A DNA stretch of 64,000 bases from Candidatus Omnitrophota bacterium. GTDB lineage: Bacteria; Omnitrophota; Gorgyraeia; Gygaellales; Profunditerraquicolaceae. Of the stretch, positions 4,449-64,000 are shown piece by piece. Numbering within the stretch: position 1 is the first letter of the stretch; each line of letters opens with the position of its first letter. A program made the translations under genes and the position numbers. The notes under the pieces are model-generated. The model had not been told where the DNA came from. It worked only from the letters and a program-made list of their open reading frames with translations, and did no database searches. Where the stretch lies: positions 288-64,287 of the forward strand of contig JAQUQW010000005.1 in the NCBI GenBank assembly GCA_028716245.1, given 5' to 3'.

Positions 4449-5216
4449 ATGACTAAAACGGCAAAAAATAGAGTTCCCCACATCATTTTCCTGTATTGGG
4501 TAATCAAAATAGTATCTACAACATTAGGAGAGACCGGTGCAGATATGTTTTCCATGACCTTTAATTTAGGCTATGGAGATACTGTTATGATATTTATGGC
4601 TCTGTTTCTTGTATTTCTTGCAATTAAACTTTCCTTGAGAGGGTACCACCCCTGGGTTTATTGGTTAACTTTCACCGCATCAGCTATCGCAGGGACCGCA
4701 ATATCTGATTTTATAGATCGTACATTAGGACTTGGTTATACATTGGGTTCTGCCGGTCTGATAGTGATGCTATTGATAGTCCTTGCAGTTTGGTATAAGA
4801 AGGAAAAGTCGATAAATGTAGAACATATTACTACGCCTACTGCGGAGATCTTTTATTGGACAGCATTTTTATTTGCAAATACATTGGGAACTGCCGCAGG
4901 GGATTTATTTGCTGATAACTTGGGGCTTGGATTTGCGCATAGTGCGATTGCGATATCCGTGGTACTTGTTATTGTAGCCCTACTACACTTCTATACCAAA
5001 GTCTCCAATGTATTGTTATTCTGGGTGGCTTTTGTTTTAACAAGGCCATTTGGCGCTACATTTGGAGATTTTCTTACTAAGCCCATTACGAAGGGTGGCA
5101 TTAACCTTGGTACAGTGAATTCTTCAATAGTTATTTGTATAATCTTATTTTTTGCAATTACTAAAGAGAATAAATTAGAAAAAGGGAGGTGGAAAATACC
5201 TAAACAGGAACTCTAA
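4449..5216 (+). CDS. hypothetical polytopic membrane protein with internal duplication
   Basis: 255 aa, ~6 TM. Two halves share a GETGADMF / GTAAGDLFAD motif. Confidence 0.5.
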   Translation: MTKTAKNRVPHIIFLYWVIKIVSTTLGETGADMFSMTFNLGYGDTVMIFMALFLVFLAIKLSLRGYHPWVYWLTFTASAIAGTAISDFIDRTLGLGYTLGSAGLIVMLLIVLAVWYKKEKSINVEHITTPTAEIFYWTAFLFANTLGTAAGDLFADNLGLGFAHSAIAISVVLVIVALLHFYTKVSNVLLFWVAFVLTRPFGATFGDFLTKPITKGGINLGTVNSSIVICIILFFAITKENKLEKGRWKIPKQEL

Positions 5217-7156: not shown

Positions 7157-7621
7157 ATGAATAAATTTGGCATAGTTTTTTTGACTGCTTTATTTGGGGT
7201 ATTGTGCATTGGTTACGGGACTTCATATAGCGCAGATGGGCCGGAAGCAAAACAAAAGTTAATCGAGCAATTATTCAAAGAGGTGCCGCCAAAAGACGGC
7301 GTGAAAGAAATAACCTGCGAGCAGTTCCAGAAAATTCGTAACTCGGGAGCAGATTATGTCTTGGTCGATGTTTTATCGCCGGAAAGTTATGCGAAAGGCC
7401 ACATAGGGGGCGCCATTTCTTTTCCTGTTAAAACGATAGATGATAAAACCGTTTCCGCGAAATTGCCTAAGAATTTGTTTGTCGTTGTATACTGTGGTAG
7501 TTTTCAATGCCATGCAAGCACGATCGCCGCCAAGAAATTATCCGGGTTTGGATATAAGGTTTTCGATTATAAAGGTGGTTTAAGGGAGTGGCAGGAACGG
7601 GGGAACGCGCTTGTAAAATGA
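7157..7621 (+). CDS. secreted rhodanese-domain sulfurtransferase
   Basis: Signal peptide and a rhodanese fold with catalytic Cys loop (VVVYCGSFQCHAS). Confidence 0.7.
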   Translation: MNKFGIVFLTALFGVLCIGYGTSYSADGPEAKQKLIEQLFKEVPPKDGVKEITCEQFQKIRNSGADYVLVDVLSPESYAKGHIGGAISFPVKTIDDKTVSAKLPKNLFVVVYCGSFQCHASTIAAKKLSGFGYKVFDYKGGLREWQERGNALVK

Positions 7622-21241: not shown

Positions 21242-21257
21242 AGCAGGTAGAATTTAT

Positions 21258-21338
21258 GCGCGGGTGGTGGAATGGCAGACACGCAAGCATGAGGGGCTTG
21301 TGCCGAAAGGCTTGGGGGTTCAACTCCCCCCTCGCGCA
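21258..21338 (+). tRNA. tRNA-Leu (anticodon GAG), type II with long variable arm
   Basis: Acceptor GCGCGGG/CTCGCGC, anticodon arm CAAGC-ATGAGGG-GCTTG, T-arm GGGGG-TTCAACT-CCCCC. Closely parallels the E. coli tRNA-Leu layout. Confidence 0.75.
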
Positions 21339-21350
21339 AATAAATACAAA

Positions 21351-21419
21351 TAAATAGGGACAGCGACCATTTTTTAAGAACCCTTGGATTCGTAAAAAAT
21401 GGTCGCTGTCCCTATTTAT
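21351..21419. repeat. perfect palindrome (25 bp arms TAAATAGGGACAGCGACCATTTTTT, 19 nt loop); bidirectional terminator-like element / MITE-like pair of the IRs that bound the 49476-51752 insertion
   Basis: Arms at 21351-21375 and 21395-21419 are exact reverse complements. It sits between tRNA-Leu (+) and the 3' end of the minus-strand response regulator. Confidence 0.7.
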
Positions 21420-49468: not shown

Positions 49469-49594
49469 AAATAGTAAATAGGGACAGCGACCATTATTTT
49501 GGATAAGACGGGGCCGGATCTAATAGATTCGGTCCTTTTATTTTAGTTAGATTTCATCTATTGCTGCGTCTATTGCGATAGAAAGGGGGCTTAA

Positions 49595-50107
49595 ATGAGC
49601 GCAAAAGATATTTCTGCAGAAGTAGTGGCAACAAAGATTCTGGTGGTACGTGGCAGGAAAGTGATGTTGGATAGGGATTTGGCGGAGTTGTATAGCGTAA
49701 AGACGCGGGATTTGAATAAAGCAGTCGAAAGGAACAGGGATCGTTTCCCGAATGACTTTATGTACCAACTTACAAGAGAAGAAGTTACAATCTTGAAGTT
49801 CCAATTTGGAACATCAAGTTGGGGTGGAACGAGAAAACCTCCGAATGTTTTTACTGAGCAGGGCGTCGCGATGCTTTCTGGTATATTGCATTCTAAACGT
49901 GCAGTGCAGGTTAACATCGCTATTATGCGGGCATTCGTTAAGCTGCGCGAGGTGTTACTAACGCATAAGGATTTAGCCCAGAAACTTGAGGAATTGGAAC
50001 AAAAATACCAATTGCATGAAACAGATATCCAGGTAATATTTGAGGCGATTAAAAAATTGCTTGAGCCACCGGATGAGCCTCCAAAGCCGCGGTTTGGGAT
50101 GAATTGA
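49595..50107 (+). CDS. ORF6N (KilA-N-like) domain protein
   Basis: ...VVRGRKVMLDRDLAELYSVKTRDLNKAVERNRDRFPNDFMYQLTREE... followed by a coiled-coil C-terminus. Confidence 0.65.
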   Translation: MSAKDISAEVVATKILVVRGRKVMLDRDLAELYSVKTRDLNKAVERNRDRFPNDFMYQLTREEVTILKFQFGTSSWGGTRKPPNVFTEQGVAMLSGILHSKRAVQVNIAIMRAFVKLREVLLTHKDLAQKLEELEQKYQLHETDIQVIFEAIKKLLEPPDEPPKPRFGMN

Positions 50108-50153
50108 GACCGCATTTATGATCTCAAAAATGGTTCGCTATCCCTAATTAACT

Positions 50154-50498
50154 CTATTTATCTGCTTTGGCGGCGCCAAAACCTTCTACTACCCTCTCTT
50201 TTACCCTGGGCGGCTTCATTAGTTGACGGATCGCTTCAAAAATATTCTGTATTGCTTCATCATGCTTTCCGATTCTTCGTTCCAGCACTCCTAATTTATG
50301 TATTAACTCCTTGTGCGCAGATAGAATCTGACGCAGTTTCACAAATGCCCGTATAATTAGAATATTAACTCCTATGGCTCTTTCGCTATTCAATACGCTT
50401 GATAGCATAGCTACACCATGTTCAGTAAAAGCATACGGTAGATATTTGATATGCTTGTCTCTTCTAGAAGCTGCGGGTTTTGCTTTGTTTAAGGTCAC
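50154..50498 (-). pseudogene. truncated ORF6N-domain paralog (C-terminal half only), convergent with the intact copy
   Basis: YAFTEHGVAMLSSVLNSERAIGVNILIIRAFVKLRQ aligns to NVFTEQGVAMLSGILHSKRAVQVNIAIMRAFVKLRE of the 49595 protein. Confidence 0.5.
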
Positions 50499-50516
50499 AA
50501 TCTGGGGTTGGGTTAA

Positions 50517-51515
50517 TTAATTTTGTTGATAATGTTTGCCGTTACAGGTTAGCTCCTTTCTTATCCGGATTAAAGCAGTGGTCCATAGCAAAAGCGACTT
50601 GGGATTGGAAGCGCAACGGTTGCGGCGCAATAAATCTCGGGTAATACAGCACATTGCTTCCACCGAATTTGTTGTAGTTGGTAAGTTTAATTCCGGATGC
50701 GCCTGATATGCCCTGTAATATCTGATAGATTGAAGGAACTCGCGTACCATAGCTTGAATGCGTTGAGTCCCACAATAACTCTGGGACAGCTGAATCAAAC
50801 GTGTTAGCAGAACATTTAGATGCGGTCTGCTTGAAGCTTCCAGGGCTTGGCGGATTAAATAATAGATTTCTTCGCGGACGCCTCCGCCTTTGAGCATCCG
50901 TCTTTCGCGGCCTCGTTGAATTTGGAGCTTCAAAATCAGATGGAAATGGCAAAGTTGGAGAATCCATCCTTCTCTCTTGGCTATACGTTTCATGCCTTGC
51001 AGATTGTCGACGACCAAGGCTTGAATTCGAGATCGTGGTTCTGGAGGGATAGCTGTAAAAGCCCGTCTCCATTTGTAAGCTCCTTCTTTACCCGGAAGAA
51101 GAATCGGATCCAGGAAAACAGCCGTTTTGCCCGAGCAAGACTTTAATGCGGTGAGATATAGGATCCAAGGTTTGCTGTGAAAATGGAACCAAAGGCCATC
51201 TGCTAAAAGGACACGCGGCCCGGAAGGCAATTTTTGAGGGGCTGGATGAGCAACAAAACGTTGCAGTAATTGTCGAAATCGATAGCGGAAAGCCAGTAAC
51301 TCTATTCCGGGACGCCGTTGAACTAAATGAATAAGCGTATACTTCTCCAGGAAAATCTGCTTCAAAACATTCAGAGGGATACGGATAATCGGCCGTCCAC
51401 GTTTCTTGAGACGAATCGACCATGTTCGTTTACAGGAAGAACATTGCCTACGCCGCTGACCAAAACGATAAACTTTTGCATTACAACAAGGGGATTTCGC
51501 ATGTTTTGTCTTCAT
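50517..51515 (-). CDS. putative DDE transposase with N-terminal zinc ribbon (IS1/IS1595-like)
   Basis: N-terminal CCNAKVYRFGQRRRQCSSCKRTW; candidate catalytic blocks LLADGLWFHF, LVVDNLQGM, NSVEAMCCITRDLLRRNR. Family assignment is tentative. Confidence 0.45.
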   Translation of the reverse strand: MKTKHAKSPCCNAKVYRFGQRRRQCSSCKRTWSIRLKKRGRPIIRIPLNVLKQIFLEKYTLIHLVQRRPGIELLAFRYRFRQLLQRFVAHPAPQKLPSGPRVLLADGLWFHFHSKPWILYLTALKSCSGKTAVFLDPILLPGKEGAYKWRRAFTAIPPEPRSRIQALVVDNLQGMKRIAKREGWILQLCHFHLILKLQIQRGRERRMLKGGGVREEIYYLIRQALEASSRPHLNVLLTRLIQLSQSYCGTQRIQAMVREFLQSIRYYRAYQAHPELNLPTTTNSVEAMCCITRDLLRRNRCASNPKSLLLWTTALIRIRKELTCNGKHYQQN

Positions 51516-51831
51516 GAATGCGAATTATCCCACAAGAAATTGATTTTCTATACGGAAAAAACACTTTAATGCGAAAATTTTTCAACAGAATTTCTTAATC
51601 CGAACCCAAAATGCGACTTCAAGTTAAAATACTCTTCTAAAGATCGCCAAAATAAAAATCCCCGACAAAACGTCAGGGCTGATTTATCATATTAGAAATA
51701 GTTAAGAATAACTATTATTTTACTACAGAAAAATGGTCGCTGTCCCTATTTATTATGTCCAGTCTGAATTTTAAAGATAAATTATTGTCCATTCTGACTT
51801 AATATTTGTCCAATCAGGTTAAGTTACTTTT

Positions 51832-51899
51832 GAAATAGGGGACGGTTATATTTTTCTTGAGCTCAGTATTAGAAAAATAGAACCGTCCCCTTTATTTTT
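51832..51899 (+). terminator. long imperfect hairpin (AAATAGGGGACGGTT...AACCGTCCCCTTTATTTTT) with T-run
   Basis: 10 bp perfect core GGGGACGGTT/AACCGTCCCC with extended imperfect pairing; a T-rich tail follows. Confidence 0.4.
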
Positions 51900-52210: not shown

Positions 52211-55200
52211 ATGAATATAAATCAGCAGCCGACAGAAGACAGTATTGAGCAACCCAAAAAAGAATTCAAGTCGAGTTTTAAGACTTGGATCCGCGCGGTT
52301 GCTTTTATTGTTATCGCGGTATTCCTGCCGGAGCAGGCGGCCCAGGCAATGGGCTATGATCCCACCACAATCTGGAACCATTCTTATTTTGTAAACCAGG
52401 GTAAAAATGGATTTTTAACTTATCTTGTCGCGGACAATATCAAGCGTTCTCTGGACTCCCTTTCATACAAACAATTAAATCAGGTTCAACTGGATAAAAA
52501 TTTAGTGGTTGAAACTGCGCCTCTTAAAGAATCAGAAACCAGTACGAAGGCCTCTGAGCCAAGCAAAGTGGACCAAAGCAATTTTTATGACAAAATCGGC
52601 AATGCCCTGCAAAGTGGCAGCGCGGAAATTATCCGCTTTGCAAGCAACGGCCTGAAGAAAACTTCCCTACCCGATCAATCCTCCCCTACCACAAGGCAAG
52701 GAACCGCCTCCAGCCAGAAACCGTCACTTTATTTGACCGGCTCAGTAGTAAAACAAATCAGCCTGTGGCTTAAGGATCCAAAGACACAGGTTGATAACAA
52801 CTGCGGTATAAACGCGCTGAATGCTTTATTTGTCCAATCAGGGATTAAACTTAGCCGCGAAGAATTGGCAACCCGGGCAATTATGGTTGATTTTCTCTCA
52901 GGCAATCTAAGGGAATTTAAGGGTGAACTTGCCCTGTCCCTGTTTGCCCTGCAAAAAACCGCTGTATCTTTTGGCCTCAAAACCGCTTTAGTCAAAATCC
53001 CCGCGGCATCATTGCAAGGGGGCCAAGCAATCTCTTCCCTAGTTCCCTTTATTACTTATCTCTTATCTGAACACTTCGTCTTAGTAACCCGCGTCACCAA
53101 TGATAAAATTTATTATAAAGAAGATAAAGAAGAAGCCAATATGCCCAAGGAGATTTTCCTTAAAGGCTTCACCGGCAATTGCTTGCTGCTTGATTCTAAG
53201 CTATTGCAAGGGAGCAAGGCAATTTCCTTACTTTCTGACAAAGAAGCATTGGAAATTAGCGGTAAGGAGAGTTTTTTCGACAGGTATAATTCATTGAAGT
53301 CGTCTATTAGCAACACAGCTAAATCCAGCATATCCAGCATATCCAGCATTAGTTCTACCGCCCAATCTTATGTTTCCAAAGCCAGCAGCACCTATACTGC
53401 CGCAAGCAATGTCTACAACACAGTTAAGTCTGTAACTGGCATTTCCATAAGCTCTATTGTGACAAGAAGCTCCATCCCCAGCAATCCTCTAAGCGCCATC
53501 AGTGTTCCTGTAACCACATATAACTATCTGGCTAGCCCCTCCACCAAAGGAAATTTAGGCAAAAGCTATGGCGCTGCAAATACCCTGCAAACCGATTTCG
53601 CTTTAACCGTACCCAAGCGTGCATATGATTTTACCGGCTGGGTAGATACTGTCAGCGGCCTTAATTCAAACCTGGGAACCAAGCTTTATCAGAGCTCCAG
53701 TCTAGTCAGATCCATCTCCGATGCTTATTCTGGGGCCAAAGGAAGAACCGAGTCCTCTTTAAAGCAAACCTACGGAATAGGGACTTATAATAATTTTATT
53801 AAACCCACAGAATATTTCGTTGCAGATACCGCAATTACTACGGCTGCTACTTTAGGTATCGGTTCAGCTGTTGGCCTTGCGGGAGGTACACTTAGCCGGG
53901 TTGGCTCTGTCAGCCGTATTGCCGAACCTATCATTTCTCGTTTGCCTCAACTTAGCCGTATCACAGAAATAGCCGGCCCAAAGGTAGGCCAGGGCCTTGA
54001 GTGGGTAGGGACAAAGGGTTGGAGCGCGGGAAAATGGATGATGAATCCTGCGACTGGAAGATGGGCGATAGCAAAAACAGCGATTAAATATTCAGGTTTA
54101 TCTTTTGTTCCCGCTACCCCTCAGTATTGGGCTACCAGCGCCGCATTCACAACCTATAATTATTTAAATAATTCTTCCACGGTGGGTAATGTACGTAAAA
54201 GTTTTACGGCCGACGCTAAAGTTCGCGAAGGAGTAGTTATTAGTGTAGCGGAGAATGTCGCGGGAATGCCTAATGGGATACTTGAGATAGGAACTTGGGC
54301 AACAGGCGGGTTAACAGGTTTTGACCAGAAAAAGTACTTGAATTTGAGGGCTCAATATTATGATAATACCGATTTAGTTAAATCCTTGAATAAATCATAC
54401 GGTGATTGGAAGCAAAAAGAAATAGCTGATCCTTTAATTGCAATATATGGGCAAAACAAATATAACACTGCGGTGAAGCCGCAAATTGAAGTTGGGGGAT
54501 TTGTGGGAAGCTTATTTGTTCCTATTGCCGGAGAGGAGAAAATATTAACAAAGGCCGGGTCTATAATAAAGGCAGGCAAAATAGCTGATGCAGTAATCGA
54601 TGTGAGCAAAGGAGTTAGAGGGATTAGGGGAATAGATGTTGCGGTTGATTTGAACAAAGGGATTAAAGCAACCAGGACAGTGTCTTATGCAGACGACACT
54701 TTGAGATTAACGCAGAAATCATATACGCCCATCAGAAATTGGGGACAAAGTCAGAGATTGGTTACGTCGATACACTCCTCAAGTTTAACTTCAAGAATTT
54801 TACCTCATTCGACACAAATCACTTTGGCTAATTCAAGGGCGCTTAACTTAATAACTAGATACGAACCGATTAATCTTATGAAGCAAAAAGTTTCAAGGCC
54901 GATATATAATTATCTGGAACGAAAAACTCTTAAACCAATATCTGATTCTTTAAAACCGTCTTATAAGTATGTAGCTAAGAACAATCCTGTTTCTTTAACT
55001 AAGCTGGGCGAATATAAATCTACAGCAGGGAAGTTAATAGGTGACCGTATTCCGCTAAGAATGAAAAATGTTTTTGCTGAAGAAAGCGCATCGGTATCGC
55101 TTGGTTCTTTAGATAAATCAGCAAGATTGTTGTATCAAGGTGGGAAAGGGCTATATCAAGGTGGAAAATGGTTTGGCAAGAATCTTATTACCGAATTTGT

Positions 55201-58200
55201 GCCTCGCCTGCTATTCTACGGGAGTGTATTCGGAACGCTTGATGCTGCATTTATCTATAAAGATAATCAATTTAATCAAGCAACAGGTGAGCTCTCAGGC
55301 AATAATCCTCTTCTTTTTTGGCTAAGAGCGACAGAATTGAATATGGGTTTTCAGATTCTAGGGGCGAAAAAGGCATTGTGGGATAAAGACTTATTCGCCG
55401 CAGAGAAGTATAAAGGATTAGCCGATAAAATGTCTAAAATTTCCATGGGCGGCCAGCTTGGAAATGGTGTTTATTTATTTGTTAATCCTCAGGATATTCA
55501 GGATCCTAATTTACGTAAAGCAGTAGAAATGATCCCCAGTCCTGTAAGGAGAGCCATTGCTATTCCTGTCCAGATGGTTGCTACCAGCGAAGGGTTTGCC
55601 AGTTTTCCTGCTATGACCACGTATTCAACCGCTTATTATACTCAAGCGGGTTATAATAAAGAAGGATATTGGGGATGGAATGGTGCATTATCAGGATTTT
55701 TCCGCGGCGCGGTTGTTATCCCCAGCGTGGCGATGTTTTCGTTTACCACTTCAGTGCTTGCTGCGGGTATAAATACATTTACTTTTGGAGATCGATATAA
55801 GAATGCGCAAATTAGCAATTGGGTTATTAATTCTTTGGGAAAACCAGTCGCGAGTTTTATCGCTCGCAGAGACGTGGATTTTAAAACTTACGCTCAGCCT
55901 GAATATATTGACATTGCGCATAGAGACGCGGCCGCCAGCCAGGATAAATATGAGGGAGCTGATTATTTTTTCGGCAATCTTTTTATGATGGGAGGTTTTA
56001 GGCAAGCAGTTGGTTTAAAGCGGCCCGAGGCAAAAGATGTTTCAGGCAGGCGTCATTTTGACACCCCGCTTATTGACGCTGGCCAAAGAGTTTCAGGCGC
56101 ACTGCTTACCCCGATGCATCTTACAACTGCTCCTATTTACGGAGGTTATAGTCATTATGCCGGAAAAGTAGCGGAAACAAGAATAGGAAAGTTTTTAGGT
56201 TTAGATGTTACGCAGAGCCGCGGTTTAAAGAATAGCATAGCGGCGCAATACAAAGAAGTTGGCCAGGGCATTTTAGGGATTAGCTCCTTTACTTTAGGCA
56301 ACCTGAATAAAATAGCAAAGTCGGAAGTAAATCTGGCACGGATATCCCTTCCTTTGGAGATAGCCCGGAAGATAAATGAACGGAGAGAAGAATTGAATGG
56401 GGTAACTCTAAAAATAGGTGAAGTGGAAGAGCAAATTCGTTTAAATGAACGTAATTTTCTTCGTAAGCCAGATTCCGAAAATTCACAAAAGAAGAGAGAG
56501 TTATCCACAAAGAGAGCGGAATTAACGGCTTATAAAATGAAGTTAAGTAACTTAGTTGAAGTTGAGGGAATAAAACAAAAGATAGTTTCGCTGGAAATCG
56601 CCGGGAGGTTTGGAACTAAAGATTATAATCAAGCTGTTGAGAAGTTTGTGAAAGCGGATTTAGGCGGCGGAGTTGAGGGTATTCTAAATAGGCAATTTAG
56701 GACGGATCTATTGAATAAATATAAGCGCGTTAAAACAGAAGGAGATGGTAACGGATTAAGCCGGGCTTGGAATAAAATAAGCACAAATTCAGAATACAAT
56801 CGGGCGGTGAAAACTTTGGATGCTATCAAGGATATAGACATCGGGAAAATAGATGAAGTTATTAAAGATACGCAAAATCAAATACAAAAATCAATTGAAG
56901 CGTTAGACAAAACCTCAAGACTTGCCTATCTGAAAGAAAACGGGCTAGGGAGCATTGCGGGATTGAATGATAATTCAAGGCGAGAATTGGCCAGAAAATT
57001 TTATGAAGATGGTGTTACTGCTGAAACGATTAAAGAAAAAGGTTTTTGGGAAAATTGGCAAGAATTCGGGCAGGGCTTAAGCGGGATCAGCCAAGAAAGA
57101 ATGAATGACGGGATGCGGGAATTATTTAAGCTGAGAGTACTTAAGTTTGACCAGGAAAAGATGGAAAAAGGTATTGATTCCGGGTTTAGAGTCGATTTCG
57201 AGGCAGGAAAAGAACTTAAAGCGGGCACAGCTGAGCGGAAGATTTTTGATACTCTGGAAAAAATGAATGCTAAAGGGTATAATTTTCAAAATTCAGTTGG
57301 TGATTTAATAAAAAACTGGGATTGGAAGAAAATTTCCGAAGATTCAGTAAGATTCGCGGAAAGTAAGGATGAGTTAGCCAACATATTGTCCACCCACTCG
57401 TCAATATTAAAGAATCCCGATGCAATGAATAATCCAGAATTTAGGGGGTTAGATAAATTACTTAAAGATTCCAGAGGGAAAACTGAACTGGGTATATTCT
57501 TAGCTTTAACTACTTTTAAACACTCCGGCGGCCGGGAAAGTCTTGGTTTATTTGCTTCTCCCAACGAATTAAAACGGGTATATGAGAAAGTATTGGAGAA
57601 AAATTTAGGAGGAGAAAAAATCAGTTTCGGAGAAGGGGTGGATGGAATCAAGGTTAAGCTTGGCGGAGTAGATTATACTTTTGTAAAAATTACCGAAGAA
57701 AGTATTAAATCTTCTTACTTAAGTAATAATTTAGACAAATTAAATGAGATTTTTAAAGATAAAATTATCCTTACCGATATCTCCACTTTACAGAATCTTA
57801 ATATGCAAAAAATCGTTCCTTCACAAGGGGAGGCGGAAAAGCAGTTGGCCAAGCGGCTGGCTGAAATTATTTATGACCGGGCAGTTATAATCGATGAAAT
57901 CCATCAGGTTTCTCAATCCCCTTACCATATAGTTGGTTTTGACGGCAAGACTCTTGCAGAGTTTTTAAAACCTGCCGAGTATGAAAAATATGTTGATGTT
58001 GCTGAAAAAATAGACAGAAAATTCCAAGAATTGGCTAACCTTGAAGAAGTTACAAATAATAAGGGTGAGCCAGTCACAACAGTCAAAGGCTATGGTAATT
58101 TAGGGGATAGATTAATTAAAATGGAATATGTTGATGAATATAAAGGTCTTACGACAGCAGGAGAGAATGAATTCAAGAGATTATTAGGCGATAAATTTGT

Positions 58201-61200
58201 AACGCAAGCAGAGAATAAAGATTTCAGTATTGAACGGCTTTTGGTAAATTCTTTTGTCAGGAACCTGTTTGAGAAAGAAGAACAGGAAGGTGGTTTTGGC
58301 CTGAAGAAAAACGAGAGGCAGGAAGACGAGGTCCATCCGGTGCATTTTGGAAAAATTAATGAAAAAATGCAGTGGTCAACTCCGGAAGAGGCAATTTCGC
58401 GCTGGGTTCTGGGTTTCCGGATGAAAGATATCAAGACGAAAGATAAAGATAATAACATTATTGATATTCCAGTAAGGGAAATTATCAGTAAAATAAAAAT
58501 AAGCGAAGAGTCAGTAAAAGTCTCCCCGATTTCGGTTCTTGCCAATTTCAAATCCTCTAAAACATTTTTCTCGGCCACTCCTTTCTACGCCGAGACTATG
58601 TCTGATCTTTTAGGGGTAAAGTACCAAGGCGACGCGGCTAAATTTATGGCCAAGGTTAAATCTGATTTAGAAGGCAGGATAGAGAAGGGGAAAGTCGGAG
58701 TAGGGGATTATGGAGAAATGATTAGGGATGGTAAGTTTAAATTAGCCGACGATAGGCCGAATATTATTCTGCCGGCTTTACTGACACATATTCCTGATTT
58801 TCTGAATAAAGTGTCTAAGGCTGCTGGCGGGAGAGATGTTTTCTATATTGAAGTTGATGATACTGTTTCTAAAATAGTAGATGGCCAGAGAGTAGAGAAA
58901 TTAGAATTATTAAAGGAACCATCAGGGGAAATAATCAAGCCGAAGGATCAGCTTGAAAAGAGAGTGAATGAGGGCAAAAATATAGTGGTGGTCTTCAGTC
59001 CGTCTAAATTAACCAGCTTTAGTTTTGATGTTAAGAAAGCCGAAGGAACTCAAAAAGAAGCCCAGTATACACTTATTATGGATAAGGATACTTCAGCTAC
59101 TGATTATTGGCAGGCCTTGAGAAGGAATAGAGAAAACCTGGAAGATTTTAATGTTATCTTCAATGGCCCAGCGGGTGAAGAGCCATTAAAGGATATCTGG
59201 AAGGATACTATATGGAAAGATAGTTTAGTAAAAACCGAGAATTTAAAAAAGAATGACGCTTTGGTCAAGGCTATAACCGAAACCCATCAGGATGCCATGG
59301 CTGGCCGGTTTGTTAGGTTCACGGAGGTTTTTCCGGAAAGGGCTGATCTGGCTTACCAGCTGCTCAAAGCTTTTCAGAGCAAACACGCCAAAGACACTGA
59401 TATTACTCCGGATAAAATACGCTCTAATGCTTATCGGCAGATTATTAGCGGCTTCAACAGTGACATTACATTCTTTAATGATGTCATCAAAGATTTTTCT
59501 CCTTTGCTTCTTTCCAAGGAAATAACTGAAGGCAGCGGAGAAACGAAGCATACTTTAAAATTTAAATTAACTTCCGCGGAAAAGAGATTTTTTGAGGATT
59601 ATCTTAAACAAGACAAGATTTTCAGAGACAGGAATGGCTTAGATTCAAGCAGAAGCACAGGGGTTGATAAAGCCAAGGTAAAATCCGAGTTAGAAGCCAT
59701 AGCCAGGTTTAAAGGCATACCTAACCTTGAAGCTGCCCGGTTTAGGGATTATTTGGCGCAAAGATATTCAACTAAAGAATTACTTAGGAAAAAAGTTTCT
59801 TCCCCGGAATCCAAGGAGGCTATAGTAGTGGCACAACAGAAAATTCAAGATGCGCTGGAAACTAAAAATGGAACAACTCCCAAAGAATTAGCCGCCGATA
59901 TAAGACAAGATTTAATCGGGCGTGGTTACACTGAATCAGCGGTTGCCGGAGTCTTAAGCCAGATGTATCCTTCCTTGAAAGAGAGTAATTGGCTAGCAAG
60001 GCGAGGGATAAATGCTAATTATATTGGTCAAGGCGTATTAGGATTTGGGCAGGCATTCTTGTTTATCAATAATCAGGAAAATAAAGAGAAAGATTGGTTT
60101 ACAAAACTTATAGAAAAATTAAATTTTTCCTTGGGTTATGGCAAAGCAATTGGCACTATTCAGTCTTTTAGCGGTGAGTTTGAACCCGAATTTAAGGAGT
60201 TTTTATCAAAATACTATGAAACTGATGGCGCAAAGGGAAATATGCGGACAGCGTTAAGGTCATCCTTAGATAAGATGATTGCCGCATCAGTAAGGGGCGT
60301 GTGGGAGTCGAGAAAAAATTTAGAATTCTACCAATATATGAAGGATATGGCGGGAAAAAACATCCCAGCGGAAGATAAATTAGAAGAGCTTAAAAAGATA
60401 AACGGCTATTTAGACATGATGTCTGTATTGGGGGCCGACGGGAAAGAATCGATAGAGAAGGCTTTTAAAGAAAAATTAAAAAATGAAAAAGCATTAAAAG
60501 ACGAAATAAGCAGGCTCGATAAATTATTGAATCACCAAATAGCCAGGACAAATGAATTGAATGTTTTGAAAGCAAGATTGGGGAGGCTCAATGATGTAGA
60601 TGAGCTGCAAGTAGCTTTATGGGCGCAGAAATTTGTAAGCCCTGCGGAAAAAAGATCCGGGATAATGAATAAGATAATGACAGCGCTGGGGATGAAAGAA
60701 AAGTTAAATGTAGCTGACTTGGCCGAGGACATTCGTGAGGAAGTAAATGAAAACATAGATGCCGTTGTTAAAGAAGGAAAAATCCCCGAGCTGGTAGTTG
60801 TTTTTGGCAAAGCTAACAGCAGGGAAATTAAGGATACAGTAGCAATTCAAAATAAATACTATGAAAAAAATAAGATAGCTAAAGTGCAAATTCCGGTATT
60901 CCTTGATGAATCGGTGAAAAGCAGCCTGATAAGTTCTTTAGGGATATTCTACAATCAAGATAATCCTTCTTTGGGGGTATCCAGCAGATATTATTCCACA
61001 GAATTCTTGATGGAATATTTGGTTAAACCTTTACAGAAACAAATTTTTGAGGACAGAGGGATCAAAGGATTTGTGATGCCTGTTGGGAAAATACCTTTGT
61101 CAGCCCGGGAACACGGTATTGTTACCAATATTTTAGGAGAAGGTTCAGCGCAGGCCAAAGGCGCTTTCATAAGCACCCATCCTTATACTACAGGGTGGAT

Positions 61201-64000
61201 GGGCGGCGTTATATCAACCATCGGACTAATACCTTTATTTGGTAGATTATGGGATTTCTTCGGAACAGGATTTAAAACTGCATTGCAGAGAGTAATGAAC
61301 CATGAATTAGGGCACGTTCATAGGTTAGGGCACGATGCGAAAGCAGCATATTCCGTAATGTCTTCTTCTGAGAAAGAAGATGGCTCGTTCTGGTCTTGGA
61401 AATGGCACTTCTGGAGGAAAGATAATACTTATCAGCCGGAGCATCTTGAGACAATCAAAAAAGATATCGCTCAATTAACTGGTGGAAAAGGTTCGGCAAC
61501 CAGTTCGGATGTTTTTGTATTACAACAGGTAACGGCAGATTTACTTAAAGGAAAAGAATCATTAGCAAAGATATCTAGCCGTAGTGAACTTTATCGAATA
61601 GGTGGCAACCTCAAAGCTGTTGCTTATTATTTAGAATCCCTTTCTTCCGCTGAAAAAAAAGAGATATTTGCCAGGATAGATGCATTTGCGGATATTTTAA
61701 GAGGCCATCCTAAAGAAGATATCATGGGTTATAAGAAAAACGGGTTTGATGCGTCAGCTCATAGTATGGATAAAATAGTCGGATTTTTTAATCTGTTAAG
61801 TAATACAGAACTCAACCCCTCTGAAAAAAGTTTTAAGGAAACCCTTTTGAGCCAGAATTTGCTTGTGGGAACAGAGAGTAACTATCAAGCAAACGGTGAA
61901 TGGTATATTATTGGTTTGGTTAGAGGCTCTTCATTAATTACCCATGAGTTAAGACATATCGTTTACCGGGCAATTGAAGCATATAGAAATGCCGTTAATA
62001 CAATGTGGAATAATATTCCAGTAGATAAACAGAAGATCATCGCGGAGCTCTTAACTAAAATCGGAGGCTATGATTTTAAAGGAGAAGAAGGACAGGCTCT
62101 GCTTGTGCGTGAATACGCCGCATATTTAGCAGATTGGCCTGCTTTCCAAGAATACTTGAATAAAAAAGAGCATGCTTCGGAAGATAGGCTATTTTTCGAG
62201 CAACAATCTCGGAATCTTCTATCTATTGAAGAAAATAATGCCCAGGCAATAAGACAATTTTTTAAAGAAAATTCTGATGAACTAGGTACTTCGGCTGAAG
62301 ATAAACGCGACGGCGGCATGGTTAGAGGCGGGCAGGCGAATGTATTTATAAATGGTGAAAACGTAAATAAACAAATTTTTGATAAAGAGGCCGTTAATTC
62401 TTATCAGCTGGCCATAGAAAGATTGGGAGAAGCGTCACTAGGTATTAACGCATTTAATAAATATGGAAATGGGACAGCTTCGGTCAATCAGAATTTTGCC
62501 ACGCCATTGTATGATCATTTAGCTAAGCTGGTAAGCGAGAATAAAATAGCCGAGGCTAAACAAGCCATAAATAATTTGGTCGGGTTTATTTACAGGCAAT
62601 GGGGCGCGGGGATTATCGACACCGACCATAAGTATTTACTGGATTATGGAGTGGATGGGAATGGCGAAATAATTTGGCTTGACCCGGGCAAGGCTTCTTC
62701 CAGAAAGACAGATTTTGTGATTGACTCGTATCGGGAGAGCGGAGACATTAAAGGTTCTTTACTTGGATTAAGCCAGGAATTATATAATTATTATATAGGA
62801 TTGACGGCTAATTTTGCTGATGAATTCCAGAAACATTGGCCCGAAGGATCTCTGACAGATGCAGACTATATGTTTGACGGCGGAACAGTGGAAACTGTGG
62901 CCAAATTGATTGCCGAATACAGAGTAGTGTTGCCGGTTAACGAAGCCATAGCGAAAGTAAGAGGATTGGGTTATTCTGAAGAATTAATAACTAAGGCAAT
63001 CGGTTACAATATTGGATTAGGAAGCGGGTTTTCTAACAATCCTTTGGATCGCGGCGGTAATAAGCAAGACAAGACAGGGCAGCGGCCGGCATCTCCAGCG
63101 CTTCCGTTGGCTCCGGGAGGGCAGAATGTGCCAGGCGTTAATGTTGTTAGCCATAGCGGGGTTGCAGGCAGCTCCAATCAGGCCTTAGTTGGCAGCAGGC
63201 CCGTATTACCTAATAATAGCGGGATTGAAACGATCATTCCCAGCATAAGACTTCAAGCTATTGGTGTTTTAACCAGCTTTACCAGCGGTTTGGCTCCGCC
63301 CGCGGCCCTCGCCAAAACTTTTATCTCAAATGTATCAAGTAGTGTAGCAAATGCAGTAAGAAGTGCAGTTGAATTAGCTGAGAAACTCTCAGGTGCCCAG
63401 AGTGCAAACTCCGGAAATGGAGAAAAAGGGCAGGATGCGAGAAGTGCGTCCGGCAATAATATAGGTAAGAGAAGTGAAGTAACTTCAACAGGAACCAATG
63501 GTGAGGCAAAATATGCCGAAACCCGAGGTTCTATTCGTGCGTATAGCTTCCCCGCTAGCTTTATTAATGATTTAAAGAAGTTAATCAGCATTCTTCAGTT
63601 CAAAAATCCGTTAATTCCCGTATTAAATCAATTTATTAATAAATTATCAGGGGTCAGCTCCTGGCTGTCCTCAAAGACAGTTCTGGCCTACAGGAGCACC
63701 CTTGATTTAAATAATGCTGAAGCCATTCCTTCTTTACGCGATGGGGGAGATGAAGGGGCTCTTGAGATTTATGAGGTCATTAAAAAGATCGGTAATTTAG
63801 TTGAAAAAATGGTCGAGGATCTTAAGAGCAAACGAAGGCCGGGTGAAACTATCGCAGGGAGATATCCTGGCGAGAAGAATAGACGCATAAGGGATGCAAT
63901 AACTCGTAACGCAGAGGATAGTATAAAGTCGATGCGCAGATTAGGGATGACCAAGCCTTTGTCTATAGATGAAGTAGGTTTAAATAACGACGATGATTTT
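52211..64000 (+). CDS. giant ORF, 5' portion (at least 3,930 codons, runs off the window); predicted signal-anchor and surface or secreted protein
   Basis: ATG at 52211 preceded by an in-frame TAA. I read the frame as open to 64000. The ORF track shows no complete + strand ORF over this 11.8 kb, as expected if one incomplete ORF spans it. Also present: an N-terminal hydrophobic segment, a Ser-rich 9 bp tandem repeat, and two HExxH motifs. Confidence 0.7.
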   Translation, partial: MNINQQPTEDSIEQPKKEFKSSFKTWIRAVAFIVIAVFLPEQAAQAMGYDPTTIWNHSYFVNQGKNGFLTYLVADNIKRSLDSLSYKQLNQVQLDKNLVVETAPLKESETSTKASEPSKVDQSNFYDKIGNALQSGSAEIIRFASNGLKKTSLPDQSSPTTRQGTASSQKPSLYLTGSVVKQISLWLKDPKTQVDNNCGINALNALFVQSGIKLSREELATRAIMVDFLSGNLREFKGELALSLFALQKTAVSFGLKTALVKIPAASLQGGQAISSLVPFITYLLSEHFVLVTRVTNDKIYYKEDKEEANMPKEIFLKGFTGNCLLLDSKLLQGSKAISLLSDKEALEISGKESFFDRYNSLKSSISNTAKSSISSISSISSTAQSYVSKASSTYTAASNVYNTVKSVTGISISSIVTRSSIPSNPLSAISVPVTTYNYLASPSTKGNLGKSYGAANTLQTDFALTVPKRAYDFTGWVDTVSGLNSNLGTKLYQSSSLVRSISDAYSGAKGRTESSLKQTYGIGTYNNFIKPTEYFVADTAITTAATLGIGSAVGLAGGTLSRVGSVSRIAEPIISRLPQLSRITEIAGPKVGQGLEWVGTKGWSAGKWMMNPATGRWAIAKTAIKYSGLSFVPATPQYWATSAAFTTYNYLNNSSTVGNVRKSFTADAKVREGVVISVAENVAGMPNGILEIGTWATGGLTGFDQKKYLNLRAQYYDNTDLVKSLNKSYGDWKQKEIADPLIAIYGQNKYNTAVKPQIEVGGFVGSLFVPIAGEEKILTKAGSIIKAGKIADAVIDVSKGVRGIRGIDVAVDLNKGIKATRTVSYADDTLRLTQKSYTPIRNWGQSQRLVTSIHSSSLTSRILPHSTQITLANSRALNLITRYEPINLMKQKVSRPIYNYLERKTLKPISDSLKPSYKYVAKNNPVSLTKLGEYKSTAGKLIGDRIPLRMKNVFAEESASVSLGSLDKSARLLYQGGKGLYQGGKWFGKNLITEFVPRLLFYGSVFGTLDAAFIYKDNQFNQATGELSGNNPLLFWLRATELNMGFQILGAKKALWDKDLFAAEKYKGLADKMSKISMGGQLGNGVYLFVNPQDIQDPNLRKAVEMIPSPVRRAIAIPVQMVATSEGFASFPAMTTYSTAYYTQAGYNKEGYWGWNGALSGFFRGAVVIPSVAMFSFTTSVLAAGINTFTFGDRYKNAQISNWVINSLGKPVASFIARRDVDFKTYAQPEYIDIAHRDAAASQDKYEGADYFFGNLFMMGGFRQAVGLKRPEAKDVSGRRHFDTPLIDAGQRVSGALLTPMHLTTAPIYGGYSHYAGKVAETRIGKFLGLDVTQSRGLKNSIAAQYKEVGQGILGISSFTLGNLNKIAKSEVNLARISLPLEIARKINERREELNGVTLKIGEVEEQIRLNERNFLRKPDSENSQKKRELSTKRAELTAYKMKLSNLVEVEGIKQKIVSLEIAGRFGTKDYNQAVEKFVKADLGGGVEGILNRQFRTDLLNKYKRVKTEGDGNGLSRAWNKISTNSEYNRAVKTLDAIKDIDIGKIDEVIKDTQNQIQKSIEALDKTSRLAYLKENGLGSIAGLNDNSRRELARKFYEDGVTAETIKEKGFWENWQEFGQGLSGISQERMNDGMRELFKLRVLKFDQEKMEKGIDSGFRVDFEAGKELKAGTAERKIFDTLEKMNAKGYNFQNSVGDLIKNWDWKKISEDSVRFAESKDELANILSTHSSILKNPDAMNNPEFRGLDKLLKDSRGKTELGIFLALTTFKHSGGRESLGLFASPNELKRVYEKVLEKNLGGEKISFGEGVDGIKVKLGGVDYTFVKITEESIKSSYLSNNLDKLNEIFKDKIILTDISTLQNLNMQKIVPSQGEAEKQLAKRLAEIIYDRAVIIDEIHQVSQSPYHIVGFDGKTLAEFLKPAEYEKYVDVAEKIDRKFQELANLEEVTNNKGEPVTTVKGYGNLGDRLIKMEYVDEYKGLTTAGENEFKRLLGDKFVTQAENKDFSIERLLVNSFVRNLFEKEEQEGGFGLKKNERQEDEVHPVHFGKINEKMQWSTPEEAISRWVLGFRMKDIKTKDKDNNIIDIPVREIISKIKISEESVKVSPISVLANFKSSKTFFSATPFYAETMSDLLGVKYQGDAAKFMAKVKSDLEGRIEKGKVGVGDYGEMIRDGKFKLADDRPNIILPALLTHIPDFLNKVSKAAGGRDVFYIEVDDTVSKIVDGQRVEKLELLKEPSGEIIKPKDQLEKRVNEGKNIVVVFSPSKLTSFSFDVKKAEGTQKEAQYTLIMDKDTSATDYWQALRRNRENLEDFNVIFNGPAGEEPLKDIWKDTIWKDSLVKTENLKKNDALVKAITETHQDAMAGRFVRFTEVFPERADLAYQLLKAFQSKHAKDTDITPDKIRSNAYRQIISGFNSDITFFNDVIKDFSPLLLSKEITEGSGETKHTLKFKLTSAEKRFFEDYLKQDKIFRDRNGLDSSRSTGVDKAKVKSELEAIARFKGIPNLEAARFRDYLAQRYSTKELLRKKVSSPESKEAIVVAQQKIQDALETKNGTTPKELAADIRQDLIGRGYTESAVAGVLSQMYPSLKESNWLARRGINANYIGQGVLGFGQAFLFINNQENKEKDWFTKLIEKLNFSLGYGKAIGTIQSFSGEFEPEFKEFLSKYYETDGAKGNMRTALRSSLDKMIAASVRGVWESRKNLEFYQYMKDMAGKNIPAEDKLEELKKINGYLDMMSVLGADGKESIEKAFKEKLKNEKALKDEISRLDKLLNHQIARTNELNVLKARLGRLNDVDELQVALWAQKFVSPAEKRSGIMNKIMTALGMKEKLNVADLAEDIREEVNENIDAVVKEGKIPELVVVFGKANSREIKDTVAIQNKYYEKNKIAKVQIPVFLDESVKSSLISSLGIFYNQDNPSLGVSSRYYSTEFLMEYLVKPLQKQIFEDRGIKGFVMPVGKIPLSAREHGIVTNILGEGSAQAKGAFISTHPYTTGWMGGVISTIGLIPLFGRLWDFFGTGFKTALQRVMNHELGHVHRLGHDAKAAYSVMSSSEKEDGSFWSWKWHFWRKDNTYQPEHLETIKKDIAQLTGGKGSATSSDVFVLQQVTADLLKGKESLAKISSRSELYRIGGNLKAVAYYLESLSSAEKKEIFARIDAFADILRGHPKEDIMGYKKNGFDASAHSMDKIVGFFNLLSNTELNPSEKSFKETLLSQNLLVGTESNYQANGEWYIIGLVRGSSLITHELRHIVYRAIEAYRNAVNTMWNNIPVDKQKIIAELLTKIGGYDFKGEEGQALLVREYAAYLADWPAFQEYLNKKEHASEDRLFFEQQSRNLLSIEENNAQAIRQFFKENSDELGTSAEDKRDGGMVRGGQANVFINGENVNKQIFDKEAVNSYQLAIERLGEASLGINAFNKYGNGTASVNQNFATPLYDHLAKLVSENKIAEAKQAINNLVGFIYRQWGAGIIDTDHKYLLDYGVDGNGEIIWLDPGKASSRKTDFVIDSYRESGDIKGSLLGLSQELYNYYIGLTANFADEFQKHWPEGSLTDADYMFDGGTVETVAKLIAEYRVVLPVNEAIAKVRGLGYSEELITKAIGYNIGLGSGFSNNPLDRGGNKQDKTGQRPASPALPLAPGGQNVPGVNVVSHSGVAGSSNQALVGSRPVLPNNSGIETIIPSIRLQAIGVLTSFTSGLAPPAALAKTFISNVSSSVANAVRSAVELAEKLSGAQSANSGNGEKGQDARSASGNNIGKRSEVTSTGTNGEAKYAETRGSIRAYSFPASFINDLKKLISILQFKNPLIPVLNQFINKLSGVSSWLSSKTVLAYRSTLDLNNAEAIPSLRDGGDEGALEIYEVIKKIGNLVEKMVEDLKSKRRPGETIAGRYPGEKNRRIRDAITRNAEDSIKSMRRLGMTKPLSIDEVGLNNDDDF

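Follow-up and report, generated by a model that had tools for sequence, protein, structure and literature searches.

A 2.3-kb segment bounded by perfect inverted repeats lies between tadC and a giant gene in a Candidatus Omnitrophota bacterium, within a stretch of 64,000 nucleotides of contig JAQUQW010000005.1 (hereafter, the window). This segment (49476-51752) carries a zinc-ribbon transposase-like gene and two ORF6N genes, one of them truncated and inverted, and the same repeats recur close together beside a tRNA-Leu gene. The question raised by this locus is whether the repeats and the transposase belong together, i.e., whether the segment is a single mobile element. We consider it probable, at roughly 0.8, that they do not. 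That is, the repeats, referred to here as arms, would be dispersed copies of the terminal inverted repeat (TIR) of a TIRYT-type Y1 transposase element, and the segment would be a mosaic of a resident ORF6N gene (ORF6N#1), an inverted module with a second ORF6N gene (ORF6N#2) and an independent insertion sequence (IS). The neat picture of inverted repeats around a transposase would then be misleading, with repeats and transposase coming from two unrelated mobile systems. The features concerned are listed below; L numbers denote loci in other genomes.

21352-21417 (no strand): TIR dimer, or hairpin, of two exact 20-nt arms (one plus, one minus), 3′ of tRNA-Leu
49476-49495 (plus): left arm, a solo TIR copy starting 7 nt past the tadC stop codon
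49510-49536 (plus): terminator-like hairpin with a T-run, separating the left arm from the ORF6N#1 leader; kept in L129, L211 and L212
49595-50107 (plus): ORF6N#1, intact, 170 amino acids (Pfam ORF6N, 5.8e-33)
49792-49818 (no strand): palindrome in ORF6N#1, CTTGAAGTTCCAA-T-TTGGAACATCAAG, 12 of 13 pairs; the usual IS target in other ORF6N genes
50129-50149 (minus): third TIR copy, degenerate (AATGGTTCGCTATCCCTAATT), between the two convergent ORF6N genes
50154-50503 (minus): C-terminal remnant of ORF6N#2 (open reading frame 50154-50498); the half palindrome at its end adjoins the IS
50504-51607 (minus): IS of 1104 bp with imperfect terminal inverted repeats, GGGGTTGGGTTAATTAA... and ...CCGAACCC
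50517-51515 (minus): transposase, 332 amino acids, with an N-terminal zinc ribbon and a DDE core (D106, D170, E286), IS256-like
51608-51640 (minus): short ORF6N remnant across the IS, encoding LEEYFNLKSHF, with the half palindrome of a different ORF6N variant
51660-51678 (minus): terminator-like hairpin of the ORF6N#2 leader module, a module that is intact in L114
51732-51751 (minus): right arm, the TIR copy of the inverted ORF6N#2 module, abutting the conserved region upstream of the giant gene

The arm is a 20-mer, AAATAGGGACAGCGACCATT, with four exact copies in the window, namely 21352-21371 (plus), 21398-21417 (minus), 49476-49495 (plus) and 51732-51751 (minus); the chance expectation, from 100 shuffles, is zero. 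These copies make up two inverted pairs, site A (21352-21417) and site B (49476/51751, 2.2 kb apart). The repeat is also written AAATAGGGACAGCGACC for the arms and WAAATAGGGACAGCGACCATTTWT for the repeat, and its 18-nt core is AATAGGGACAGCGACCAT. With imperfect extensions, the site-B arms match over 34 nt (88%). At site A, the 20-mers are separated by 26 nt; counted as arms of about 25 nt, they leave a loop of 16 nt. As single-stranded DNA, this hairpin has an energy of -32.8 kcal/mol (z = -14), and it begins 12 nt 3′ of tRNA-Leu(gag) (21257-21339). In all, the window has a dimer, two solo copies and a decayed copy, the last of which is also found 3′ of ORF6N in L211 (7451-7471) and L222 (4471-4490). 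The site-A dimer and the reverse complement of a dimer located after tadC in L212 are identical at 63 of 67 positions, spacer included; thus, the 67-bp dimer occupies different loci as a unit in related genomes.

An earlier note on this DNA had reported the perfect arms at 49476/51752 and again at 21351-21419, the zinc-ribbon, ORF6N and truncated inverted ORF6N genes, and the absence of a target-site duplication at the arms. All of this agrees with our data, the gene content being borne out by Pfam matches and by invariant cysteine and DDE residues in the transposase. The note's spacing of 19 nt at site A was only approximate, but the position beside tRNA-Leu was correct. It had overlooked the degenerate arm at 50129-50149 and the fact that the IS has ends of its own, well inside the arms.

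Further copies of the arm, which the earlier note had proposed to look for, are plentiful. A scan of GTDB representative genomes for the exact 18-mer yielded at least 120 stretches (labelled L001 onward) in metagenome-assembled genomes (MAGs) of at least 12 phylum-level lineages. The labels of these MAGs are Omnitrophota, Nitrospirota/Thermodesulfovibrionia, Planctomycetota, Desulfobacterota/Syntrophia, Clostridia, Elusimicrobiota, Desantisbacteria, Aerophobetes, WOR-3, Chloroflexota, Firestonebacteria, Ratteibacteria, Aminicenantes and, in one case, Aenigmatarchaeota. Such a search makes one arm per locus identical by design; the partner arms are unselected, and in the transposase-bearing loci they carry 0-2 mismatches. 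Conservation ends sharply at W-A-[18-mer]-T-T-W-T. The arms are arranged as close inverted dimers with spacers of 12-35 nt, as singles beside ordinary housekeeping genes, or as inverted pairs 727-754 bp apart. Each wide pair encloses one open reading frame of 221 codons, with about 41 nt between arm and start codon and 0-4 nt between stop codon and arm. This compact arm-gene-arm unit, about 745 bp in length, is present in at least seven loci (L019, L026, L027, L030, L061, L068, L097). The encoded protein (MPRIARAVA...PHHVTQRGN...NHVHFV...LWQGRF...RYVENNP) is 54-71% identical among the seven, with more distant copies in L004 and L006, and matches Pfam Y1_Tnp (IS200-like) at 8.8e-16 in the case of L019. 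In L062, arms 239 nt apart surround only the first 56 codons of the Y1 gene, which makes this locus a deletion intermediate. In the MAG JBDRIY01, a full unit (L030) coexists with a solo copy (L044), and four others (JAKQSG01, JAFGUY01, CAZQGT01, CAYSJU01) have copies on three to four contigs each. Among 2.9 million viral contigs the 18-mer has no match, which lends no support to a phage vector. Neither the arm sequence as a string nor its core led to a relevant paper in the searchable literature.

TIRtrons and TIRYTs were named by Di Nocera et al. (2013, PMC3733652), who describe a GGGGWSAS sequence shared by many TIRs and TIR families dispersed as singles, dimers or groups. Most TIRYTs fall into subclass 2.1 of the TnpA-Y1 family, with a median length of 238 amino acids and NHVH, W[EQ] and Y..LNP-type motifs; around subclass 2.1 genes, that study reports no REP-like repeats (Quentin et al. 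2018, PMC6006769). The Y1 unit described here resembles these elements in that a Y1/HUH gene (about 220-240 amino acids in the known kind) stands between long terminal inverted repeats rather than GTAG-type repetitive extragenic palindromes (REPs). Its TIR includes a motif, AGGGACAG, that fits GGGGWSAS at 7 of 8 positions (variant copies in L040 and L010 read GGGGACAG), it is likewise dispersed as singles, dimers and groups, and its protein motifs, NHVH, WQ and Y..NNP (YVENNP), are those of class 2, subclass 2.1, in the published classification. It differs in that the TIR has stayed nearly constant while the proteins that go with it are down to 41-71% identity, in that this one TIR occurs in MAGs of a dozen or more phylum-level lineages, and in that repeats are plentiful here, whereas none that are REP-like were seen around subclass 2.1 genes (PMC6006769). 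Judging from these sequence features, the arms belong to the known TIRtron/TIRYT kind, as a new member that is unusually widespread.

The systems formed by REPs or REPINs and their REP-associated tyrosine transposases (RAYTs), such as TnpA-REP of E. coli and the REPINs of Pseudomonas, share several of these traits, namely short palindromic units at gene ends, strong single-strand hairpins, a Y1 transposase gene that is itself bracketed by the repeats, and a gene-less doublet as the spreading unit. However, the arms start with AAATAGGG and lack the GTAG/GTGG (GT[AG]G) foot of canonical REPs; a single arm is not self-complementary, so that the hairpin needs two; and, at 65 bits, the Y1 protein stays under the 80-bit cut-off of the NCBIfam RAYT model. 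In addition, vertical inheritance and lineage specificity are reported for REPIN-RAYT pairs, whereas the repeat studied here crosses phyla.

Based on these comparisons, we propose that the ~745-bp Y1 unit gave rise to the gene-less TIR dimers, among them the hairpin beside tRNA-Leu, as miniature forms. The Y1 transposase, acting in trans, would recognize the hairpin of a TIR pair on single-stranded DNA and spread TIR units into A/T-rich gene ends, where they would probably also function as terminators. The arm family would be one of several palindromic repeat families that colonize gene ends in these genomes. If so, the poorly studied TIRYT/TIRtron class gains a well-populated example, and a recognition sequence that is nearly fixed across many uncultivated phyla would be a good substrate for Y1-class biochemistry.

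Three side observations concern the arm family. A contig assigned to an Aenigmatarchaeota MAG (L021, JAUWZS010000018.1) carries the arm five times, together with three fragments from the N-terminal part of the Y1 gene, reflecting either transfer into archaea or a binning error. In five loci from different phyla (L001, L024, L050, L071, L091), about 40 nt of conserved sequence, TTTAAA..TGCCCGCAACGGCAGATARCAGAGTGC, extend from a solo arm and include a small stem-loop; the first ~58 nt from the arm have no Rfam match and no conserved gene lies behind them, and Rfam scans of these five loci and of the window returned tRNAs only. Lastly, tandem partial copies of the outer end of the arm (AAATAGG, AAATAGGGAC) line the outer flanks in L003, L007, L013, L032, L042, L056, L058, L071, L072 and L097, as though abortive events had recurred there.

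The transposase gene in the window belongs to an element with different boundaries. These boundaries were set by copies at 91% (L123, L124) and about 69% identity (L121, L122, L125-L128), and later by L215-L221; the DNA that IS copies have in common is limited to a core of 1103-1107 bp, GGGGTTGG...CCAACCCC. The ends of this core are unrelated to the arms, and in the window they lie 124 and 1008 bp inside those of site B. The arms are absent from the eight other copies in L121-L128, where arm-like matches with four errors, found in three loci (L126-L128), fall exactly at the IS junctions, i.e., in target flanks. Conversely, a tblastn search with the 332-residue transposase found no match in the 120 arm-bearing loci. 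Its homologues number at least 790, and most are on contigs of about 1.1-1.8 kb, a pattern typical of repeats at which assemblies break.

The window protein has no Pfam hit, and its match to the NCBIfam model 'IS256 family transposase, variant Zn-binding type' (E = 0.005) reaches 16 bits against a cut-off of 150. In an alignment of 44 homologues, C10, C11, C25 and C28 (a CC..CxxC zinc ribbon) and D106, D170 and E286 are invariant, the latter within the motifs D-N-L-x-G...Q-L-C-x-F-H and T-T-N-x-V-E. NCBIfam transpos_IS256 matches 38 of the 44 (best 1.3e-9), IS256_Zn_var 35 and Pfam Transposase_mut 6. An hhalign comparison with one IS256 transposase aligns the regions of the second D and of the E motif, at a probability of only 1.2%. 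Taken together, the model matches and the invariant motifs suggest, at the level of protein sequence, that the IS represents a new, short branch with a zinc ribbon, related to IS256 but scoring under the curated thresholds in existing models. Like IS256 (a Mutator/MULE-type DDE element), it has one gene between terminal inverted repeats, the motifs D-x-x-x-G...Q-x-C-x-x-H and T-T-N-x-x-E, and a DDE triad whose residues are 64 and 116 positions apart. Members of the IS256 family are typically about 1.2-1.5 kb long, encode about 400 amino acids, and by the ISfinder definition duplicate 8-9 bp of the target. The IS studied here is shorter (1104 bp, 332 amino acids), a zinc ribbon replaces the usual N-terminal domain, and the target duplication is 5 bp.

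This duplication was read from five independent insertions, with AATTT in L215, AAATT in L123 and in L217, AAAGT in L220, and TTTTT in L127. The IS family inserts preferentially into a conserved palindrome within the coding sequence of ORF6N genes: in L123, L121, L215 and at the left flank of L221, the IS sits at the exact centre of this palindrome, in either orientation (for example, AACTTGAAGTCAC-AAATT-GTGACTTCAAGTT in L123). Other insertions, in L125-L128, are in palindromic sequences beside Y1 genes. In L216, L218 and L221, the left flank of one insertion is joined to the right flank of another without a duplication, which implies recombination between IS copies. The IS in the window is flanked on one side by 51608-51640 (LEEYFNLKSHF, or ...GTCGCATTTT) and on the other by 50493-50503 (AGATTGTGACC...). 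These flanks, ATTTT and AGATT, show no target duplication and are half palindromes of two different ORF6N variants; read in this way, they carry the signature of recombination between IS copies. We therefore envisage that an IS of this IS256-like family would have entered an ORF6N palindrome and later recombined with another copy. Insertion sequences that target REP palindromes reportedly include IS1397 and ISPpu10. Another is ISPpu9 of Pseudomonas putida (PMC8450116). As in those cases, copies of the present IS lie at palindrome centres, in either orientation and repeatedly at the same kind of site; unlike them, it encodes a transposase of another family, and its main target is inside the protein-coding ORF6N sequence rather than in an extragenic repeat. 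The IS family provides a tidy example of an element that targets palindrome centres and makes a defined duplication of 5 bp.

The remaining DNA between the arms was compared with that of relatives, which were found via ORF6N and tadC homologues. A 170-residue ORF6N protein is encoded between tadC and the giant gene in five of them (L129, L211, L212, L213, L214), and the first four share the arrangement tadB, tadC, variable segment, ORF6N, giant gene. Given this conserved position, ORF6N is a resident of the spot and not a recent insertion. What lies between tadC and the ORF6N gene adjacent to the giant gene varies as follows.

L213: nothing
L129: a second ORF6N gene and ParE/Phd
L211, L212 and L222: an AAA_14/DUF4143 gene, and in L212 also a DUF1016 gene after its ORF6N
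L223: BrnT/CopG in the variable segment, with no ORF6N gene called

The position just past the tadC stop codon is equally variable, in that different palindromic repeat families occupy it in different relatives. It holds a solo copy of the present TIR in the window, a dimer of it in L212 (1 nt past the stop codon), a GGGAAATGGGGTC-type dimer in L222, a AAAGGGACGGTTCTG-type dimer in L223, and nothing in L129, L211 and L213. The window and L129 align continuously from tadC across the terminator hairpin and on into ORF6N, apart from a clean gap of 14 nt (TAGGGACAGCGACC) at the position of the left arm; that is, the DNA that would have been inserted is present without the arm. At its junction with the conserved region upstream of the giant gene, L129 retains a decayed remnant of the right arm.

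ORF6N#2 has had a different fate. Its remnant matches Pfam ORF6N at 2.5e-05 over profile positions 61-86 only, i.e., the C-terminal part, and its DNA is 84% identical both to an intact gene in L114 and to a remnant in L211. On this evidence of truncation, ORF6N#2 is a pseudogene. The complete module of arm, hairpin, leader and ORF6N in L114 matches over about 100 nt (76%) and stands at a locus unrelated to the tadC spot, in the same assembly as L129. We suggest that the inverted ORF6N#2 module came to the window with its own TIR. Truncation of ORF6N#2 by the IS alone is contradicted by L211, where the gene is differently truncated without an IS, and by the chimeric flanks of the IS in the window; its history thus has several steps. 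In L222, ORF6N#2 is intact. Inversion of the segment between the arms is not in keeping with the data either, since ORF6N#1 has the orientation and position seen in the relatives. In L211, the closest relative, a duplicated fragment of the tadC 3′ end is fused to an internal fragment of ORF6N#1 (7240-7409), beside the inserted AAA_14/DUF4143 gene, which is further evidence for repeated rearrangement at this place.

The earlier note had treated the 2.3-kb segment as one insertion bounded by the arms. Taken literally, this would mean a single transposon whose zinc-ribbon transposase acts on the 20-bp arms, with 21352-21417 as its miniature inverted-repeat transposable element (MITE). The perfect inverted repeats around the transposase gene, and the gene-less pair elsewhere in the window, are what such a transposon would leave. 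However, the eight other IS loci share only the 1104 bp with its own terminal repeats and contain no arm, the transposase has a homologue in 0 of the 120 arm-bearing loci, the short contigs of most homologues correspond to a small IS, and the interior genes are syntenic residents in relatives; we regard this explanation as contradicted and very improbable. The arm is a common REP-like repeat that has no tie to this transposase, the outcome by which the note said its reading would fail. Its idea of a full element with a MITE-like derivative survives insofar as the hairpin is a miniature gene-less form, but the autonomous partner is the ~745-bp Y1 unit and not the zinc-ribbon IS. The note's other reading, a native palindromic terminator whose loop was invaded, can be rephrased as a TIR dimer after tadC that was driven 2.2 kb apart by successive insertions into its loop. 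The intact dimer right after tadC in L212 is in keeping with it, as are the targeting of palindrome centres by the IS family and the decayed right arm at the same giant-gene junction in L129. Yet what lies between the arms is a mosaic, L129 has the hairpin, leader and ORF6N without the left arm, the right arm is linked to a leader module that also stands at the unrelated locus in L114, and the inner flanks of the site-B arms are unlike the dimer spacer. We therefore hold this sequence of events to be quite unlikely.

A further alternative assigns the arms to the ORF6N genes, as TIR-flanked cassettes that would be non-autonomous relatives of the Y1 unit, moved in trans. Indeed, the stretch from the left arm through the leader and ORF6N#1 to the degenerate arm (49476-50149) is a unit of 674 bp whose arms are inverted and whose length is similar to that of the 745-bp Y1 unit, and TIRs abut ORF6N ends in L089 (1 nt past the stop codon), in L114 (on the 5′ side), in L211 and in L222. 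On the other hand, the ORF6N gene beside the giant gene keeps its position in five relatives with or without arms, and the arms in L089 and L114 are one-sided only. Among 80 more distant metagenome ORF6N loci, only two have an arm-like match, each with three errors, and this rules out ORF6N as regular cargo of the arms in general. For Omnitrophota, we keep the cassette explanation as a minor rival, unlikely but worth bearing in mind. Dispersed Y1-element TIRs in a mosaic segment remain our preferred interpretation, against which the following points must be set. In Omnitrophota, TIR copies at the ends of ORF6N cassettes seem to exceed chance (three in the window, and others in L089, L114, L211 and L222), and a closer link between ORF6N and the TIR may exist. 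The score of the 221-residue protein below the NCBIfam cut-off speaks against it too. Moreover, no Y1 transposase gene lies within the 64-kb window, so that mobilization in trans is something we infer for this organism, and errors in the binning of MAGs may have made the list of phyla too long.

The palindrome targeted by the IS is itself unusual. The loci concerned are L131-L210, L224-L303, L089, L114, L129, L211-L213 and the window. Among 94 ORF6N genes from metagenomes and relatives, about 87 have the strongest palindrome of their entire coding sequence at one and the same codon position. Its centre precedes the FTEQG motif by 45-54 nt, and its arms of 12-16 bp (22 in L178), often perfect, give a total length of 25-35 bp. 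With the centre picked by maximizing pairing within a 45-nt span, 88.3% of the pair cells in 92 distinct 35-mers are complementary versus 71.8% after shuffling, and none of 500 shuffles reaches the observed value; slid registers of the same 35-mers give 26-46%. Double-sided changes number 233 versus 80 expected, with very few G-T intermediates. Random synonymous re-encoding of the same peptides yields 5.9 of 15 pairs, as compared with 12.9 of 15 observed. Most phage-borne ORF6N genes also carry the palindrome, and one subgroup has the same core (GGTCACAAATTGTGACC) in another frame, encoding LVTNCDQL versus RSQIVTS. Covariation, codon bias and the second frame indicate selection at the nucleic-acid level, which probably acts on the DNA. 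The ORF6N literature, as far as its text was accessible, makes no mention of an internal palindrome. Candidate roles are an operator for the gene's own protein, a recombination or nicking site, and a hairpin in single-stranded DNA. Tentatively, and at somewhat less than even odds, we suggest that the ORF6N palindrome of bacteria and phages is a functional cis element not yet described, that short zinc-ribbon IS256-like insertion sequences have specialized on its centre, and that this palindrome and the cross-phylum TIR are two faces of a palindrome-centred mobile-DNA ecology. If functional, it would add a cis element to a very common, barely characterized DNA-binding family of phages and mobile elements.

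Some minor observations pertain to ORF6N and the giant gene. The giant open reading frame (about 53400-64000) runs off the window; the product sizes from gene calls in L129, L211, L212 and L213, given in ascending order, are 4089, 5202, 7171 and 18761 residues. That ORF6N is always directly upstream of the giant gene suggests a regulatory link. Just outside the right arm (51752-51825), three spaced TTGTCCA(N)TCTGA-like boxes (ATTATGTCCAGTCTGA, ATTATTGTCCATTCTGA, ATATTTGTCCAATCAGG) are found. They are a candidate operator array and are also conserved ahead of the giant gene in L129, L211, L212 and L213. The ORF6N#1 leader (49540-49594) is conserved as GTTAGATTT..TCTATTGC..GTCTATTGCGATAGA, and also in L089, L114, L129, L211 and L212; it has direct repeats and, directly before the ribosome-binding site, a TCTAT-N4-ATAGA palindrome that may be an autoregulatory site. 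A second palindromic family (AAATAGGGGACGGTT...AACCGTCCCCTTTATTT) is located upstream of the giant gene in the window (51837-51891), L129 (11872-11940), L212 (9191-9257), L213 (8181-8247) and L223 (~4840-4900), and a third (AATACGACCC..TTTCCC...GGGAAATAGGGTCGTATT) flanks ORF6N genes in L129, L211, L213 and L222. The arm family and these two share a AAATAGGG-like outer end.

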